DNA of 63,669 nucleotides, filler included, from Squatina squatina (lineage: Eukaryota), in assembly GCA_031763465.1 (NCBI GenBank). It is 3 parts of 3 records of this genome, joined end to end, with 100 filler letters (N's around TTAATTAATTAA, not from the genome) between each part and the next. Parts side by side here need not be neighbours in the genome. Positions count along the whole stretch, not along the records: positions 30,139 to 50,998 come from JARFOE010000115.1; 2 more parts are not named here. One strand, written 5' to 3'. The position numbers and the translations under genes were made by a program. The notes below the pieces were generated by a model, which was given only the letters and a program-made list of their open reading frames with translations, was not told where the DNA came from and searched no databases. How positions within the stretch are numbered: the first letter of the stretch is position 1; the number at the start of each line of letters is the position of its first letter. Shown here piece after piece: positions 11,560-51,392 of this stretch.

Positions 11560-11897
11560 TTTCACTTAATTAGCTGCATGTTTACAATGAGATTAGAGCC
11601 CCGCAGCTATCACTAACCCAGCACAGCGAGTGGCCCATCTGATTAAGGACTAATTTATTTAAAACGATCATTTACTGCTACTGGCACTTTCATCAACCAA
11701 TCGCGTTGTCAGGACGACAGCGCCACCCGGCCAGAAGTCCCTGATTGGCTGAAAGTTTCGCCCCCTTGTAAAGTTTTGCAACCTTTACTACAGTTCCATG
11801 CCTCTCTGACCCTTTAGTTGGGGAAGTTGCTTAGTTTGGTAAAGGATCACTTTCTCTAGAGTTGTAACTTTTTTTTTATGTCTTTTTATTGCCCGTC
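11560..11897 (+). promoter_or_regulatory. MSX2: MSX2 proximal promoter and 5' UTR
   Basis: Immediately upstream of the start codon and CpG-enriched. CCAAT at 11697-11701, reverse CCAAT (ctgATTGGct) at 11741-11750, and several TAAT/ATTA homeodomain cores at 11566-11660. The transcription start site cannot be determined. Confidence 0.6.
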
Positions 11898-12273
11898 ATG
11901 ATGTCTTCGCCACAAGGCTCAACATTGAAGGATAACAGCGTCTCTGACCCGCAGATCCAAAGGGTTGCTGAAACTGCTTTGAACGATCACAAAGTCCAAG
12001 TGTCGAGTCTCCCCTTCAGTGTCGAAGCGTTGATGTCCGATCGGAAGCCGCACCGAGGTGGTTTACCTCCTTCGGATGGAGCAGGCGGCAGCACTTCGCA
12101 AAAACTTCCCTCCAAACCAGTGGCCAGGGAGTCGCAGAGCCCGATAGACTCTTCCTGCTCGCTGGAAGGTTTTATAAAGACTTACGACAGTTCGTCAGTG
12201 AAATCTGAAAACTGCAAGGAAGAAGATTGTGTCCCGTGGGGCAAAAATTCAAGTTACTCGCCGCCTCCAAATA
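11898..12273 (+). CDS. MSX2: MSX2 homeobox protein, coding exon 1
   Basis: MMSSPQG...KVQVSSLPFSVEALMSDRKP (eh1 motif FSVEALM at 12015-12035)...SVKSEN...PW...YSPPP, followed by a phase-1 donor A|GTGAGT at 12274. The VSSLPFSVEALMSD and SVKSEN blocks match MSX2 as I recall it. Confidence 0.92.
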
Positions 12274-12964
12274 GTGAGTTTGCTTCAGATTAATGTATCT
12301 ACTTGATCTATGCTGTTTGTATATTTATTTCGTTTTATAAATGCTTTCGAAATGTTTGAAGCTATCATTGAGACTAAAGTATAGAATATTGGAAAGCTAT
12401 TGCGTCAGTAGCACATCTCTTTAAATGTTCGTGGTGATTTTCTCTGACTGCAGAACTCGGTGATGCTGTGAGCACCAATTCTGCACTCTCAAAATCGGGC
12501 TGCCGACCGCTGTAACTAAACGTGCTGACGGCCAATTAGACATTGAAAGCAACGGGTAGACAACATTAATTGATGTGAGCAATTTGTTCAAAATGCTCCC
12601 AATATTGGCAGTGTTATGAAGAAAGGCACACTCGTGACTGCGTTTTAACATTAGATTTGGCGGGGCAGTTGTCAACTTTTGCAAAAGAATTGAATATGTA
12701 AGTAAATAAACAATGGATACTTCAATCCAATCATAATAGTGTAAATATTCTGTACAGTAATTTCCTAAGAAAGATTAGAAATATATTGCGGGTGGAAATG
12801 ATTTCAGGGTAATTATTACTATTGATGGTGTATGTTANNNNNNNNNNNNNNNNNNNNNNNNNNNNNNNNNNNNNNNNNNNNNNNNNNNNNNNNNNNNNNN
12901 NNNNNNNNNNNNNNNNNNNNNNNNNNNNNNNNNNNNNNNNNNNNNNNNNNNNNNNNNNNNNNNN

Positions 12965-13366
<402 letters not shown>

Positions 13367-30290: not shown

Positions 30291-30409
30291 CTTATGATTT
30301 CTTCCATGTTTATCTAGCAAGGAAATTATAGACTTAATGTGTCCTTCTTTGATAATGTTCAGTGCTTCAGGACTTTCCACAAGAACACAGTGTAAAACCT
30401 CAAGAATTC
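30291..30409 (-). CDS. RYR2: Ryanodine receptor 2 internal exon (about human exon 18)
   Basis: cag|GA ATT CTT... translates to (G)[39 protein letters not shown]|gtatgt. 119 nt with canonical splice sites. Confidence 0.93.
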
Positions 30410-31015: not shown

Positions 31016-31078
31016 ATGGGCAGCACTACTGTACACGTTGAGATGATCAATGCACTCAAGAACTAGGTTAATCATTCC
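31016..31078 (-). CDS. RYR2: RYR2 internal exon (about human exon 16), 3' part lost in the gap
   Basis: ttgcag|GGA ATG ATT... translates to GMINLVLECIDHLNVYSSAAH, which continues the preceding exon in frame. Confidence 0.9.
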
Positions 31079-31363: not shown

Positions 31364-31547
31364 CTCTTCCTGGAAGAGATTTTGTCTGTTCTTCAGTGCT
31401 CTCAATCTGTTCTGTTTCTCTTCATGTTCCAGATGTTCATCAGGTGGCTGAAAATAGCCAATCAGATCCTGCAAACTCAGGCTGACTGATTCAATGGGCA
31501 AATCAACAGCTGTGGATTTCCCTTTCTTATTGAGAGCATCAAGGCCC
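31364..31547 (-). CDS. RYR2: RYR2 internal exon (about human exon 15)
   Basis: ccag|G GGC CTT... translates to GLDALNKKGKSTAVDLPIESVSLSLQDLIGYFQPPDEHLEHEEKQNRLRALKNRQNLFQEE|gtaaac. 184 nt. The residues match RYR2 better than RYR1 or RYR3 as I recall them. Confidence 0.93.
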
Positions 31548-32570: not shown

Positions 32571-34569
32571 CTGGGAGGGATCAAGGGTTTCCTCAGTGGG
32601 AAAGGAAAAATACTGAACAGCAAGTAACCCTGATGCTGATCTTGTGCACCTCTGCATGGATGGTTCAGTTGTAAAGGAATTGGTCACAGTCTGGACATGG
32701 GGAAATGGTGCAGGGGGAAGTTCGAAAAGGAGAGTGGGGGGAAAAAAACAAAACATTCAAAAAAATCAAAACATGAGTCACGGATTAAAAAAGAAATAAT
32801 AATATTAGAATGAGTTCCTCCAAAATCCAAGGTGAGTGGTGTTATTTGGTGATGTAATGCATATGTGGAGTGCATTGGCAGACTAAAGGTAACGCACAGT
32901 TGCAGCAGTGTTACTGCAGGGGTTTTTGAACAATCTTACCTTGTGCTACTTCACTTCCAGAACAAATTGGAGCAACACTCCAGAGAGTTTGCTGGAATGC
33001 GGCATCAACCTGCAAACTGCTACAGCCATATGACAAATGCTGCAAGAGAACAAGATCAGTTCAGCACTGTCTTGAGACTGCCAGGTCACGCTTAAATACA
33101 TTAACAGAATACTGATATTTTAAAACATCGTCTTCAACCAATCAAAGGTGTAAATATTACGGCCTGCAAACCTGCTACCAGCATTTATTCTATTGCTTCA
33201 GTGTTTCAATAAGACAAATATAATAACATTTGCAGGAAGATAGTTTAACATGTTTGTTCAGTTTATGCCTGCTTTGTTTTATCAAAATACAAGTGGATTC
33301 AGACTTCCTATAGCATCACGTCATCTAGCCAAATAGGTAAATAAGCACTGCATTGTTACATGTGCTACAAAGCAAATCACAAACTAACGCTTCTGCACCT
33401 CTCAGACAATGCGTGAAAAATGGAATCAATGCTAATCAAGAATTCCAGGCTACTCATTATCATAAAAGATATGGGGATGTTTTCACATTTAATTAATTAA
33501 TTAACTGAAATCTAGCTTCAATAAAAAATGAAAATGGAAGCATTCGCTCCTCACTGTGTATAACTTTCTGACCATGATTACCAATTAATCGCTTCCTACA
33601 CATTTAAGGGTTTTTCCTCCATTTCCTGCCAATTCTTCTCTCCCCTTTCCCTCGCCTGCAGCATTGACTTGTTGCTGGGTTATGTTCCCACAAGCATCGG
33701 TCACTCTTCTGACCCCCAACCAAGTGGCCATTTTACATGTGCAGGCTATTCTATCGTAAACTACTTTAAAGGAAAGCTTTAAACCCGAAACNNNNNNNNN
33801 NNNNNNNNNNNNNNNNNNNNNNNNNNNNNNNNNNNNNNNNNNNNNNNNNNNNNNNNNNNNNNNNNNNNNNNNNNNNNNNNNNNNNNNNNNNTGACGGTCA
33901 TCCAAGGTCCGCACTCTCTGTTCCAGTGATTCAAGTAGATGTCAAAATCCCACAGCACTATTCAAAAAAAGATCAGGGAGCTTTCTCACTGTTAACATTT
34001 TTCAATTAACCAATATCACCTAAGAAAAGATTACTAAGTTAAGGCATCCCAAGCAACAGGCCGTGCCCATGCCAAGAGGGCAGACAGGTTCCAACAATTC
34101 TGAGAGTTCCACGCGGTAACAAGCCTCTTGGGGTCATGCAAGAGCAGCCTGAAATGGTTCCGACATCGATCCTTTCTCCCTTCAGATAAATGAACTAGCT
34201 TCCTCTTGAAATGTCCTCCAATGGCAGGACTGAGATCTGGAAGTATCCATCTGAGGAATTGGTGGCACATTGTTGGACCACTACACTGTTCCTTTTTCAT
34301 GAACTTGTTTTATATGTGAGGGGGTATAGCCAAGAAAGAAATGGGAAGCAGTTTACTTTTAACAAGGAGCTCATAAGAAACGTGATTGAGCATCATAAAT
34401 CAAAGTGGTGAGCGCACTGGGTAGCTTCTGACAAAATAAGCTCTGTCATTAACTGTGAGTGTAGGCATGCTAAAAATAAAAGCTGCAAATGCTACATAAT
34501 GCATTTTACAAGCATGCTACAGTTTGCCAGGAGCGGTGCGAGGGTCAGTGAAGTATTTGTTTTGCTTAC

Positions 34570-34584
34570 CTTCATCATGAATTT
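34570..34584 (-). CDS. RYR2: RYR2 15-nt microexon encoding KFMMK (about human exon 5)
   Basis: Minus strand reads ...gcttacacag|AAA TTC ATG ATG AAG|gtaagc. Phase 0-0, on the correct strand and in the correct order relative to the other RYR2 exons. KFMMK lies in the RYR2 N-terminal stretch QVDVEKWKFMMKTAQG. Confidence 0.85.
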
Positions 34585-34739
34585 CTGTGTAAGCATACAA
34601 AATATTTTTGAAAAGTTAGTTTACATGAGTATTTNNNNNNNNNNNNNNNNNNNNNNNNNNNNNNNNNNNNNNNNNNNNNNNNNNNNNNNNNNNNNNNNNN
34701 NNNNNNNNNNNNNNNNNNNNNNNNNNNNNNNNNNTCTAT

Positions 34740-46077: not shown

Positions 46078-46158
46078 TATAGGTGGTTCTGATGGCATAA
46101 CACCTTCCTTTACATTGCTTTGTCATTCTTTATAACACTGTTTTCCACAATCACATAG

Positions 46159-46375
46159 GATGTACTGGTCTCGAGGAACTTATCGGAATTGATCCATCTT
46201 TTGAAGAATTTCAGTCAACACTCTTCAGTGAAGCTTCCAAAGGCCTGGAGCGTAGTGTTCAAACTAAAGAAGTGAATGCCCAGCTCGATAAGAATATATT
46301 AGTTTTTCTAACACATTTGTCTCCATACTTCATGCTAAAGCCAGCCCAGAAATGCCTTGAATGGCTTATTCACAG
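46159..46375 (+). CDS. HEATR1: HEAT repeat-containing protein 1 (UTP10) exon (about human exon 3)
   Basis: tag|GA TGT ACT... translates to (G)CTGLEELIGIDPSFEEFQSTLFSEASKGLERSVQTKEVNAQLDKNILVFLTHLSPYFMLKPAQKCLEWLIH(R)|gtaact. 217 nt. Not in the ORF track. Confidence 0.95.
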
Positions 46376-46703
46376 GTAACTTGACTATCATGATGCACCA
46401 ATGATTTATAATTTAGAAAACAATAGATTTTTTTCTTAGATGAACAGATTTGAACCTTATAAAACTTTGAATGTCCATGTTCTTAATCAAAGTGGCCTCT
46501 CACCAAACCTATTCCCTACGCTCGTCGATCAAACCTAGCTAATAATTTTTTATTTTGTGAAACAAATGTAAGCAAGGAATTCGTTTTTTCAAAGCAGAAC
46601 AAATATTTTGCTGAATAATACACCTTGTGATCATAATGTTGATTTAAGAATAATTAGAGCAATGAGATCTTCAGGGCTTTAACTTGTATGAACTTGTCAC
46701 TAG

Positions 46704-46845
46704 GTTCCACATCCATCTCTATAATCAGGACAGTTTGATTGGCTGCATTCTTCCCTATCATGAGACCAAAGTGTTTGTAAGAGCCATTCAGCTTCTTAAA
46801 CTCAGTGACCCAACTCATCGCTGGCACTGGCTGGAGCCCATACAG
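46704..46845 (+). CDS. HEATR1: HEATR1 exon (about exon 4)
   Basis: (R)FHIHLYNQDSLIGCILPYHETKVFVRAIQLLKLSDPTHRWHWLEPIQ|gtaggt. 142 nt, phase compatible with the previous exon. Confidence 0.95.
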
Positions 46846-47264
46846 GTAGGTAAATGTTCAAACAATGTAATTAGAGCGTGGACATATACAACTTTTATTG
46901 TGCTCAATTATGTGTTATCCGAAGGCTAGGAATACCTGATGTTCCTCATGGATTTTTGTAGTCATTTCATTTTAGGTTTTATTTCAAAAATGAGCAAATT
47001 ATCTCAGTACGTCCTCGAGTTTGTCACACTCAAAGCTCACACACACGGCGCTGTTTGATAAATTAGCCGAGTCTACGGAATGGAATTAACTGAAGGAAGA
47101 TGGATGTGTTCAGCGGTGAGTTAGAATGCTGTCCTTTCACCTCTAACGTAACTCACATTGACAGAGTGGGACTCTCCTCTTCCTCTTCCTATCTGGGAGA
47201 TGTGGGAAGCAGCGGGTTGCCACTTAATCCGTTCACAGTTGGGACCTGGATGCTTATGAAGTTA

Positions 47265-47551
47265 TGGAATAGAATGGTTACAGCACAGAAGAAGGCCATT
47301 CGGCCCATCGAGCCCGTGCCAGCTATCTGCAAGAACACTTCAGCTAGTCCCACTCCCCCCTCCTTGTCCCATAGCCCTGCAATTTTTTTCCTTCAGCTGC
47401 TTATCCAATTCCCTTTTGAAAGCCACGATTGAATCTGCCTCCACCACCCTCTCAGGCAGCGCATTCCAGATCCAAACCACTCGCTGCATAAAAAAGTTTT
47501 TCCTCATGTCGCCTTTGGTTCTTCTGCCAATCACCTTAAATCTGTGTCCTC
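47265..47551 (-). mobile_element. Relatively young CR1 3' end in a HEATR1 intron
   Basis: IGRRTKGDMRKNFFMQRVVWIWNALPERVVEADSIVAFKRELDKQLK, with an intact frame. Confidence 0.9.
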
Positions 47552-47760
47552 NNNNNNNNNNNNNNNNNNNNNNNNNNNNNNNNNNNNNNNNNNNNNNNNN
47601 NNNNNNNNNNNNNNNNNNNNNNNNNNNNNNNNNNNNNNNNNNNNNNNNNNNNNNNNNNNNNNNNNNNNNNNNNNNNNNNNNNNNNNNNNNNNNNNNNNNN
47701 NNNNNNNNNNNNNNNNNNNNNNNNNNNNNNNNNNNNNNNNNNNNNNNNNNNNNNNNNNNN

Positions 47761-47830
47761 AATCACACATTGTTACAAAGATCTGAACTTTATGGATTTT
47801 ATCTGTAGTCTGGTAACCAAGACTGTCAAG
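47761..47830 (+). CDS. HEATR1: HEATR1 exon (about exon 5), 5' part lost in the gap
   Basis: ITHCYKDLNFMDFICSLVTKTVK|gtttgt. Confidence 0.9.
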
Positions 47831-48049
47831 GTTTGTACATTCAAAACCGATTCAGATTTAAAAGTTTTAGCTGCACCATCAATGTAATTTGAATTTTCCT
47901 TCAATAGTTTTTCATACAATTTGCATAAAAATTTAAGCTTGTTTAAAAGTGTATTGTAAAACTACCATTGTAGGTGTGGTACACAGGATCCCTAAAGGCA
48001 CGGAAAGGTGTGGTAATGAATCATGCAGACTGGGAAACTCCACGACTCA

Positions 48050-48330
48050 ATGGCTGAATTGCACTGCTGATCTCACTTGTTGATAGTGAGGACACTACTG
48101 CTGGTTTCAGTGTCCCAAGGTCAGGGAGGTATAAAAGCAGCCTCAGTTGCCACTCCTGATTGCCATCTGTGACTGACACTGGAAAATGCACGTGCATTTA
48201 GGTCAGCGAGCACAGGATCAGGCTCGCTTGAGATGCCCTCCATGGTTGACTGTCTGGGCTCGTGTGAAGAATGGCCACTTGCCGAAATATGGGAGTGTTA
48301 GGAGCACTCGTAGGCTCATGCCACAACTTT
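48050..48330 (+). repeat. Unclassified SINE-like dispersed repeat, same family as 10380 and 60520
   Basis: caggatcaggctc...gatgccctccatggttgactgtctgggctcgtgtgaagaatggccacttg. Confidence 0.55.
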
Positions 48331-48419
48331 CAAAAGGAAAATGGTGAAAATTTGGATATCAAAAAGAAACAACAATTCTGTGATGTACTTCTCACTGTAT
48401 CAATTTCACTTTTTTTTAG

Positions 48420-48560
48420 GCATTTGCAGATTATCCTGGCAACACAGCACAGTTGAGGGTTCTGTTTTCTTTTTATGCATCCACCATTGTGCCAGCACTA
48501 ACTGCTGTGGAAAAGATAACGGACACCATAGTAGCCAAGTTGCTTCCCTATATCCAGAAG
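48420..48560 (+). CDS. HEATR1: HEATR1 exon (about exon 6)
   Basis: ttag|AFADYPGNTAQLRVLFSFYASTIVPALTAVEKITDTIVAKLLPYIQK|gtaatg. 141 nt. Confidence 0.95.
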
Positions 48561-48968
48561 GTAATGAATAGTGTGTGTATATGAAGTTAAAGCATGTGGG
48601 CACTTTGGTTTGCAGCTTATATTAAATATCCTGAATTTAGTTTATTCAATAGTTAAAGTCTGAACTGTCCTTTGCATTTGAGCTTCTGCACGCAGAGTTA
48701 ACCACTAACTCACTGACGGATAGATTGGGGATGGGTGGCCTTTGCTCCTCAATACCCCAGTATAATTCTTCAAGTCTTCTAACAACTCTCGGGGTCAAGT
48801 GTATGAAACAACAGCCCTTGTGCAGTGATCTCCGATTGTCCTCTCCCTGTTCGTCACTCATACTAATAACCTTTGAATGACACCCAGTGCTCCCATTTGG
48901 ATTATGCTGTGCTTGTCATCTGTATTGTGGGGTATTGATGTGTAATATGCTTCTCTTCTAATTTGTAG

Positions 48969-49180
48969 GGACTGAAGTCTTCATTGGCAGATTACAGAGC
49001 AGCTACCTACATGATAATCTGTCAGCTTGCTGTGAAAGTTGTCATGGAAACCTCTCTGATAAACACTCTGGCTCAGCTGATCAGCAAGGCACTCGTGAAG
49101 ATGCCAACTCTGATACGAGAGGGACTGAGTTGCCTGATTATTTTACTGCAGCACCAAAAGAGAGAAAATATGAGTAAAAA
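48969..49180 (+). CDS. HEATR1: HEATR1 exon (about exon 7)
   Basis: gtag|GLKSSLADYRAATYMIICQLAVKVVMETSLINTLAQLISKALVKMPTLIREGLSCLIILLQHQKRENMSK(K)|gtaagt. 212 nt. Confidence 0.95.
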
Positions 49181-50472
49181 GTAAGTGCAATATTCTGTTT
49201 TGTGCTCCGTAGCTTTATTGTAAACAGGAAGCGCCGTGGGACGTTTTACTATGTTAAAGGTTCCATATAAATGCAAGTTGTTGTGCTGGACAGTGGCATC
49301 TCCATTGTCCGCACAACAAACGCCTCATCCTTCATCAGATAATGGAATTTGGTAGATAATCAAGCCCCTAAATTGTGGTCTTGTATCTATGCTACATCAA
49401 TACCCAAGGAATGAAGACCAGTTCAATACAGATCTTAAACCGTTTTATTCACGAAGAAAATGAGACAAATTACAAGTAGCAAAAGCTCCACAGTGAGATC
49501 CTGTCTTGCACAAGCCTTTGTCCTATGAAGATTCTGACTGATATAGTTCTACTGTATTAATTATTATTAAAGTTATTAAGAATCAGAAATATTTGCGGGG
49601 GCATGGAGCCTCTAGCATCCAGCAGTTTGCATTTGCATTAGTATTTTATTTGAATGGGGAGGGCATAGAATATATATACTGCACACGAACTGGATAATTC
49701 CATAACTATACTTGGACATACAATTAAAAGCATATTCTTCTGTCAGTTCCCCATTTAGTAATGCAAATAAGGAAACATTCTCAGCCTCCAATTGCCCAGC
49801 TATCAGGAATTACAACAGTGAATCTGAGTGTGCTTTGTGGCACAGATTAGTATCCTCAAATTCAGTGGAATTTGAAATCATGTTATGGATACAATCTTGT
49901 TCGGTTTTTGCTAGATAAGACTGGCCACAATTAATGTAAANNNNNNNNNNNNNNNNNNNNNNNNNNNNNNNNNNNNNNNNNNNNNNNNNNNNNNNNNNNN
50001 NNNNNNNNNNNNNNNNNNNNNNNNNNNNNNNNNNNNNNNNCTAATTATGATAGAACAAATTAAGATATTGAATAAATTGCCATTTGCATCAGGAGACAAA
50101 ATGTGGTTTTTATATTTCCCGCGTGATAAATTTGTGGACTTATTTTTCATGTACTGTATGTTATGAATAGCAAAATACACAAACTTATTAACTTTCTGAA
50201 ATGGAAAAACGCTTTGGTCAAGCACCAGCAAGTTAAAAGACAACTTGTTTTTTCCATCCAAACGCAGGGTGAATAATTGGATTCCAATGCACGTAACCAC
50301 TTCCTGAATAAGGACAGTCTGTGTTTGAGGTTTTATTGGTAGATCATAAAACTCATCACGATCAGTAACAAAAAAAAGCTCATTTAAAGTAAATTTATAT
50401 ATTGTACAGATAAAGTATGGTTTTGTAACTCTATCCTTTTCATTTGCTAATTGATGAATATTGATATTTCAG

Positions 50473-50665
50473 ACCCATCTGCATGATTGCAATCATCTCT
50501 TCAAATTCTTGTCACTTTTGTGGAGCTACAATTGTAACCTTAACAACCAGTTAAACTGTACAGTAGGTGCCGTATTGCAGACTCGAGCCCTTTACTTCGG
50601 ACGCGCATTACTCGCACCACAGTATACAGGGCAGGGAAGCCAGATTGCACCTCCATCGTTGCCAG
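50473..50665 (+). CDS. HEATR1: HEATR1 mid-protein exon (about human residues 855-920)
   Basis: tcag|THLHDCNHLFKFLSLLWSYNCNLNNQLNCTVGAVLQTRALYFGRALL...SLP(V)|gtatgg. 193 nt, resembling the recalled human LFKFCSVLWTY...LNCSVKTVLQTQALY. Confidence 0.85.
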
Positions 50666-50770
50666 GTATGGTCTATCGAACATGTGTTTACTTCACTACA
50701 TTGGTTAAATATATTGTTTAATTTTAAAACTATGATGCTGCTTTATCACTAAGTTGTGATTCGCTTTCAG

Positions 50771-50943
50771 TGGTGGTCTCCTTAGTCATCAGTTTGGGCA
50801 ATCCTGTGAGAGACGTGCGCCGGGGAGCTATTGCCTGTCTCCAGACGTTAGCAGAAGTACAAGGATCTGTCTTTCATGTGGTTATTGATAAGCTTGTCCA
50901 TTTGGCAGAAGAGATTATTGCAGATCCCACTCATTTAAGTCAG
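50771..50943 (+). CDS. HEATR1: HEATR1 next mid-protein exon, after a 105-nt intron
   Basis: tcag|(V)VVSLVISLGNPVRDVRRGAIACLQTLAEVQGSVFHVVIDKLVHLAEEIIADPTHLSQ|gtaaga. HEAT-repeat signature. Confidence 0.88.
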
Positions 50944-50998
50944 GTAAGAAAGGAGACATGGGCTGTTCTATTTGCTGTTGGTAATTTTGTGCAATTTT

Positions 50999-51170: not shown

Positions 51171-51392
<222 letters not shown>

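Follow-up and report, generated by a model that had tools for sequence, protein, structure and literature searches.

The window analysed here is a stretch of 63,669 nucleotides (filler included) of the Squatina squatina genome, composed of three stretches, the second of which (30139-50998) maps to scaffold C115 of the assembly (G000:C115) and is itself divided into contigs of 0.6-2.6 kb separated by gaps. This second stretch harbours, on the minus strand, part of the ryanodine receptor gene RYR2, including a 15-nt exon that can be read directly from the window sequence at 34584-34570 as cag/15 nt/gtaagc, exactly where a preliminary description of this DNA had placed it. The features of the locus are as follows, numbered along the window.

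33892-34634, no strand assigned: 743-bp contig carrying the microexon, bounded by 100-N gaps and equal to G000:C115:25210089-25210831
34615-34620, minus strand: ACTAAC, likely branch point, with the branch A at 34616 (position -32); from the sequence
34593-34595, minus strand: TGC at -11 to -9, candidate SRRM3/4-type element, also within a YGCY (MBNL-type) site; from the sequence
34585-34587, minus strand: 3' splice site CAG, with no further AG up to the contig end 50 nt upstream and an A-rich, weak pyrimidine tract; from the sequence
34570-34584, minus strand: RYR2 exon 5 orthologue, a 15-nt frame-preserving microexon (KFMMK); from the sequence, the match to mouse and the peptide of a catshark model
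34564-34569, minus strand: 5' splice site GTAAGC following the exon-terminal AAG, near consensus; from the sequence
34513-34517, minus strand: GCATG (AGCATG), 53 nt downstream of the exon, candidate RBFOX site within the first of two 8-mer copies
34466-34470, minus strand: second GCATG (AGCATG), candidate RBFOX site
32940-33039, minus strand: next RYR2 exon downstream, 100 nt, catshark residues 186-219, by inference exon 9
31364-31547, minus strand: RYR2 coding exon, 184 nt, scoring 109 bits against the full-length RyR2 chain, 67 against RyR1 and 61 against RyR3
31016-31078, minus strand: RYR2 coding exon, cut by a gap
30291-30409, minus strand: RYR2 coding exon, 119 nt
48969-49181, plus strand: UTP10/HEATR1-family exon, facing away from the RYR2 5' end (Pfam PF12397, E 1.7e-15)

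The contig that carries the microexon extends just 50 nt beyond it on the upstream side, to 34634; it contains no further coding exon of RYR2 and is tied to that gene only by scaffolding through 100-N gaps. Downstream of the microexon, 33 other matches to catshark RYR2 exons follow on the same strand and in gene order across ~180 kb of C115. By best-scoring protein, C115 corresponds to RYR2, C219 to an RYR3-type gene and C51 to RYR1, and the microexon locus is RYR2 rather than RYR1 or RYR3, the link running through scaffold gaps. The RYR2 exons of the window share 89-94% identity with proteins of sharks, rays and chimaeras, as against 83-85% with those of bony vertebrates, in agreement with the cartilaginous-fish host named in the preliminary description. 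RYR2 exons 1, 3, 4 and 6-8 were not found on the C115 scaffold, and an RYR2-type exon 2 lies on an unplaced contig; here the microexon is followed by exon 9, with exons 3, 4 and 6-8 missing, and in the catshark model KFMMK lies between exons 3 and 6. The single exon 4 candidate, a match to a degenerate pattern on an unplaced contig, was rejected for its lack of a pyrimidine tract and its repeat-like context, which resembles a LINE 3' end. Absence of exon 4 from so fragmented an assembly proves nothing; no clear exon 4 was seen in any of the 15 cartilaginous-fish RYR2 models covering the region.

Several further observations concern the surroundings. At ~590-680 of locus L016 (minus strand), a peptide similar to a LINE reverse transcriptase continues directly into the interior of a large RYR2 exon; the contig is probably chimeric. 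Lone copies of RyR exon 3, of RYR1 and RYR3 type, lie at C46:13810283 (L042) and C57:7180573 (L040), outside C51 and C219, and may be wrongly placed contigs or additional paralogues. A UTP10/HEATR1-family gene has exons within 46101-50997 (plus strand), 12 kb from the microexon on a compressed scaffold, with one of the four ORFs tested matching Pfam; in human, too, HEATR1 lies near RYR2. The other stretches of the window contain a two-exon homeobox gene (11868-13363, plus strand; Pfam Homeodomain) that resembles MSX, and the last exon of an F-actin capping protein alpha gene (51171-51389, plus strand; PF01267).

The 15 bases are almost certainly exon 5 of Squatina squatina RYR2. They are bounded by AG and GT and encode KFMMK in frame, and the exons flanking this site in the paralogues end and start at codon boundaries. 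A comparison with mouse, proposed in the preliminary description, bears out its recognition of the RYR2 KFMMK exon: 14 of the 15 nucleotides are identical to Ryr2 exon 5 (mm10 chr13:11890834-11890848). The pattern AG-[KFMMK codons]-GT has one match in the 1.5-Gb genome and none in the reversed control. Base composition predicts 0.32 such matches genome-wide, against 1.4e-6 for the 13-kb interval that precedes the next RYR2 exon; a single genome-wide match is thus unremarkable, but one within these 13 kb and on the right strand is not. The exon is the orthologue of a known mammalian exon, already annotated in one shark, and it adds to annotation and dating rather than revealing a new kind of biology.

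Among RYR2 gene models, KFMMK is present in mammals, birds, lungfish, coelacanth, bichir, paddlefish, gar, bowfin, eel, carp and catshark, so that the exon is, as proposed, common to cartilaginous and bony vertebrates and predates their split. A list in which 120 of 120 models contained KFMMK is biased, the query itself having held the peptide; ranked by an unrelated region, the list contains 35 of 120 models with it. Twenty-one cartilaginous-fish models were retrieved (the shark and ray cluster being covered for 15 of its 40 members), of which 15 span the region: one has KFMMK (Scyliorhinus canicula RefSeq isoform X4, XP_038670247.1), ten join exon 3 directly to exon 6, three have odd K/F-containing inserts and one has other filler. 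The expectation that automated annotation would miss the exon therefore holds for 14 of these 15 models and fails for the catshark; either annotation often misses the exon in cartilaginous fishes or the exon is often skipped, and it is already on record. The odd inserts, in manta, epaulette shark and skate models (P0286, P0288 and P0290; 12 residues, KFFCR and KFMK), represent either exons that have diverged or artefacts of prediction. Among the 65 distinct RYR2 models of spiny-rayed fishes that span this part of the gene, only that of Centroberyx has KFMMK, and several keep exon 4 alone, which suggests that exon 5 was lost in percomorph fishes and would be dispensable in a large clade. Full-text searches (subscription journals and VastDB excluded) brought up no paper dealing with exon 5 of shark RYR2 or with paralogous RYR3 microexons.

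A paralogous 15-nt microexon encoding KFMIK is located in the RYR3 gene of this genome (G000:C219:1379488-1379502, plus strand; L060:4489-4503). It follows exon 1 and precedes the GEACWW exon; its pyrimidine tract is strong, a TGC lies at -10 and there is no GCATG downstream. A looser pattern, designed after both exons had been seen, matches these two exons only in the genome, with none in the control. Three of four C219 exons compared with RyR chains in the PDB are best matched by RyR3 and one by RyR1. Outside the exon, the flanking sequences of RYR2 and RYR3 cannot be aligned (95 of 254 columns). In mouse, one Ryr3 intron is listed as holding a 21-nt annotated microexon and a 12-nt microexon 'Missing in GENCODE', both mostly excluded, the 12-nt exon being highly conserved in vertebrates (PMC7821500, supplement file 2, row 1590). 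Translated by hand, these encode LSDLSEW and FQRK, the intron being equated with that of the shark by peptide likeness, not by alignment. A pattern of the 21-nt type finds one site in the shark genome, TSDISEW, on the unplaced contig G000:C745905 (minus strand; L063:48-68), which has a weak acceptor, matches the mouse peptide at two positions left free by the pattern and is a candidate for a 21-nt exon like that of mouse Ryr3. This site is flanked on either side by a copy of the same 11-nt word. A search of representatives at 50% identity brought up, at the same loop, five additional residues in an RYR3-type fragment and an exon-4-like peptide in an RYR1-like protein. The peptides found at the equivalent place in cypriniform RYR3 models are KFIKR and RLIRR. 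A tortoise RYR1-like model (XP_074927339.1; P0325) has an exon-4-like peptide ending in DLDKW before the exon-6 equivalent, which suggests that RYR1 has a copy of exon 4; a scan of 50 kb of C51 for AG/GT exons of 12-24 nt gave no gene-strand candidate with a related peptide. No jawless-fish sequence was identified among the matches. Since RYR3 carries a paralogue, the exon is very probably older than the RYR2/RYR3 duplication, and the age first proposed for it, before the shark-bony fish split, is too conservative. This duplication is commonly associated with the genome duplications of early vertebrates.

In the protein, KFMMK corresponds to residues 99-103 of solved RyR2 chains, and RyR1 chains are 12 residues shorter in domain A. 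Exon 3 encodes residues 57-91 (PMC3990712), and residues 95-104 of mouse RyR2 are described as a dynamic helix that turns into a strand on deletion of exon 3 (PMC5314882 and PMC7570887, citing Amador 2013 and Lobo 2011); exon 5 therefore encodes the second half of this helix. The title of Amador 2013, as cited in the same two papers, calls the helix unique to RyR2. Since RYR3 carries paralogous microexons, these optional counterparts suggest that the helix is not confined to RyR2. It is likely that the ancestral vertebrate ryanodine receptor possessed a domain A cassette of two microexons, 21 and 15 nt, which RYR2 would have kept mostly included and RYR3 mostly skipped (with a 12-nt exon in mouse), some RYR1 genes retaining exon 4 and percomorphs losing RYR2 exon 5; in that case the 'RyR2-unique' helix would belong to the family as a whole, as an element that splicing can switch. 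An AlphaFold model of the trout RyR2 N-terminus was discarded (mean pLDDT 36.7), the 12-residue insert of PMC11452665 is located elsewhere, and the supplements of PMC12626420 (file 13 aside) and PMC12868881 contained no Ryr match.

The inclusion of the exon is best documented in mammals. A table of the MicroExonator study lists the mouse exon as annotated, in the cluster 'Included' and differential in brain, heart and adrenal, its inclusion rising in mid/hindbrain from E13.5 (PMC7821500). In the paper whose exon numbering is adopted here, the PSI of exon 4 falls from 0.89 to 0.03 without MBNL1/2 (PMC9476621). The form containing exon 5 only is reported to increase in embryonic and Mbnl1-null heart (PMC4356957), exons 4 and 5 are skipped or mis-spliced under CUG-repeat RNA (PMC8021116, PMC13232024), the function of the region being called unknown in the former, and an islet form without exons 4 and 75 is cited in PMC12109991. 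Since in mouse it is exon 4 that responds strongly to MBNL, and loss of MBNL1 raises the exon-5-only form, MBNL need not act on exon 5. Among gene models, exon 5 is found in 14 of 15 placental and 13 of 15 marsupial cases; in Hemibagrus and Tachysurus, RYR2 isoforms may have both exons 4 and 5, lack both, or have exon 5 alone, and in individual catfish and eel species KFMMK is present in some isoforms and absent from others. The microexon is likely to be mostly included but skippable. That it is skipped in some shark tissue appears rather likely, inclusion and skipping in sharks being read from gene models; models without the exon may be read-mapping failures.

The motifs noted around the exon are all present, ACTAAC at 34620-34615, TGC at 34595-34593 and GCATG downstream at exactly 34517-34513 and 34470-34466, the coordinates first given for the latter spanning the palindrome GCATGC. 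ACTAAC occurs once in 34300-34634, upstream of the exon at the branch position, and the site reads AACTAAC, not the full TACTAAC. Control splice sites were called by a simple script from this genome's 33 other RYR2 exons; once gapped or low-scoring sites had been dropped, 28 acceptors and 27 donors remained. Among these acceptors, of which at least one (on the chimeric contig) and perhaps two more are mis-called, TGC lies at -20 to -6 in 6/28; ACTAAY is present at 1/28 and CTRAY at 8/28. The TGC of the microexon begins at -11, close to its position in the RYR3 paralogue. Two GCATG within +1 to +130 occur at none of the 27 other donors, with a background P of 0.005-0.007 that rises to 0.04 for a 300-nt window, values that are uncorrected and concern motifs picked after the fact; there is no TGCATG in 34300-34634. 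Both GCATG belong to one repeated 8-mer (34512-34519 and 34465-34472, minus strand), the copies being 47 nt apart. YGCY occurs five times in the 200 nt downstream of the exon and is not enriched (background P 0.12). The GCATG pair is the sole mildly unusual feature of the cluster, which is weaker than had been claimed.

QKI-activated exons carry ACUAAY near the donor with a UAAY half-site. Here the one ACTAAC lies upstream of the exon instead, and no UAAY lies in the 14 nt upstream or the 20 nt downstream of it. The position of ACTAAC explains the motif, and a QKI role is not needed; the 'perfect' ACTAAC is likely to be a branch point rather than a QKI site. A QKI preprint names exon 75 as the RYR2 target, with activation from sites near the donor (10.1101/2025.09.04.674271), and the Ryr2 change in QKI-null heart is reported in PMC10202634 for an exon that it leaves unnamed. 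The microexon lies within the 3-27 nt range and preserves the frame, as SRRM3/4-type microexons do, but its mouse orthologue, differential also in heart and adrenal, is not a neural-specific switch, and the TGC, which recurs in the RYR3 paralogue, is common at other RYR2 acceptors and is at most a candidate SRRM3/4 enhancer. These results do not support the list of regulators as a whole: the factor linked in print to exons 4 and 5 is MBNL, which the preliminary description did not name. Dependence of the shark exon on RBFOX is less likely than not and dependence on MBNL is doubtful; SRRM3/4 dependence appears improbable and QKI dependence more improbable still.

The explanation that best accommodates these results, and is probably correct, is that of a mostly included but skippable RYR2 exon 5, recognised by default and tuned by tissue, that originated before the duplication. 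A chance match, or a contig brought into RYR2 by scaffolding error, is scarcely conceivable: a third of a match is indeed expected genome-wide, and the scaffold is rich in gaps with one apparently chimeric contig further down RYR2, but strand, order and frame are all correct, the expectation within the 13-kb interval is minute, the catshark model carries the identical peptide and RYR3 has its own copy of the exon. Independent origin of the RYR2 and RYR3 microexons, or the copying of one by gene conversion after duplication, is very unlikely. Five residues are a short target for convergence, invertebrate RyR representatives have short loops of other sequence, and jawless fishes are missing from the matches; against this stand the tandem layout common to both genes, a Trp-ending 21-nt exon followed by a Lys-ending exon, the exon-4-like peptide of the tortoise RYR1-like model and, for recent conversion, the unalignable introns.

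Two other accounts concern regulation. The exon could be constitutive in sharks, its motifs plain splice signals or chance and the models without it failures of short-exon mapping, as the strong donor and branch point, the nearly invariable inclusion in mammalian models and the three odd shark and ray inserts, which suggest that pipelines struggle here, would allow; but isoforms with and without the exon within single bony-fish species, skipping reported in mouse heart and the direct exon 3-exon 6 junction in ten of 15 cartilaginous-fish models make this rather unlikely. The original proposal, of a switch-like heart/brain microexon controlled by SRRM3/4 (TGC), QKI (ACTAAC) and RBFOX (GCATG) since the shark-bony fish split, has a low probability. 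All three motifs are in place, TGC recurs at the RYR3 exon, a GCATG pair within 130 nt is uncommon and mouse inclusion rises in the developing mid/hindbrain, but ordinary acceptors often carry TGC, ACTAAC occupies the branch position without a half-site and the QKI preprint points to another exon and to donor-near sites, mouse exon 5 is 'Included' rather than neuronal, and the GCATG value weakens in the wider window for motifs chosen post hoc.

Under the preferred explanation of a mostly included, skippable exon, the near-consensus donor and the strong branch point at -32 in an AG-free zone would permit default recognition despite the weak pyrimidine tract, and downstream GCAUG (RBFOX-type) and YGCY (MBNL-type) sites may raise inclusion in heart and brain, RBFOX and MBNL being the best candidate tissue factors. 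KFMMK would lengthen a mobile surface loop of the N-terminal domain A, which together with exon 4 could exist in forms with 0, 5 or 12 extra residues, and an effect of exon 5 on channel gating is plausible. The peptide, unchanged from sharks to mammals, argues for function; mouse models of heart disease in myotonic dystrophy show mis-splicing of exons 4 and 5, and in the exon 3 deletion linked to arrhythmia the segment takes the place of the strand that is lost. The RYR3 counterparts and the apparent percomorph loss offer natural comparisons. The exon was known in mammals and annotated in one shark, it is very probably older than proposed, and its regulation by the named splicing factors is unproven.

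SRRM3/4-dependent neural microexons are 3-27 nt long, frame-preserving and deeply conserved, with UGC close to the acceptor. The shark exon agrees in length, frame and conservation and has a TGC close to its acceptor, as do 6 of 28 other RYR2 acceptors, but mouse exon 5 is broadly included and not neural-specific. Among the closest known systems is exon 5 of the mammalian RYR2 exon 4/5 cassette, which has the same length, peptide and gene position (alternative region: PMC4356957, PMC8021116, PMC13232024, PMC9476621), with the difference that no RYR2 exon 4 was found in the Squatina assembly. Catshark RYR2 isoform X4 has the same KFMMK between exons 3 and 6, in a different assembly, and is silent on regulation. 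At the protein level, the exon corresponds to residues 99-103 of the dynamic helix alpha2 (residues 95-104) of RyR2 domain A. The RYR3 microexons (21 and 12 nt in mouse; KFMIK in shark) differ in that the mouse copies cluster as 'Excluded' and the shark copy has a strong pyrimidine tract and lacks downstream GCATG, but they have the same tandem layout as RYR2 exons 4 and 5 and encode similar peptides.
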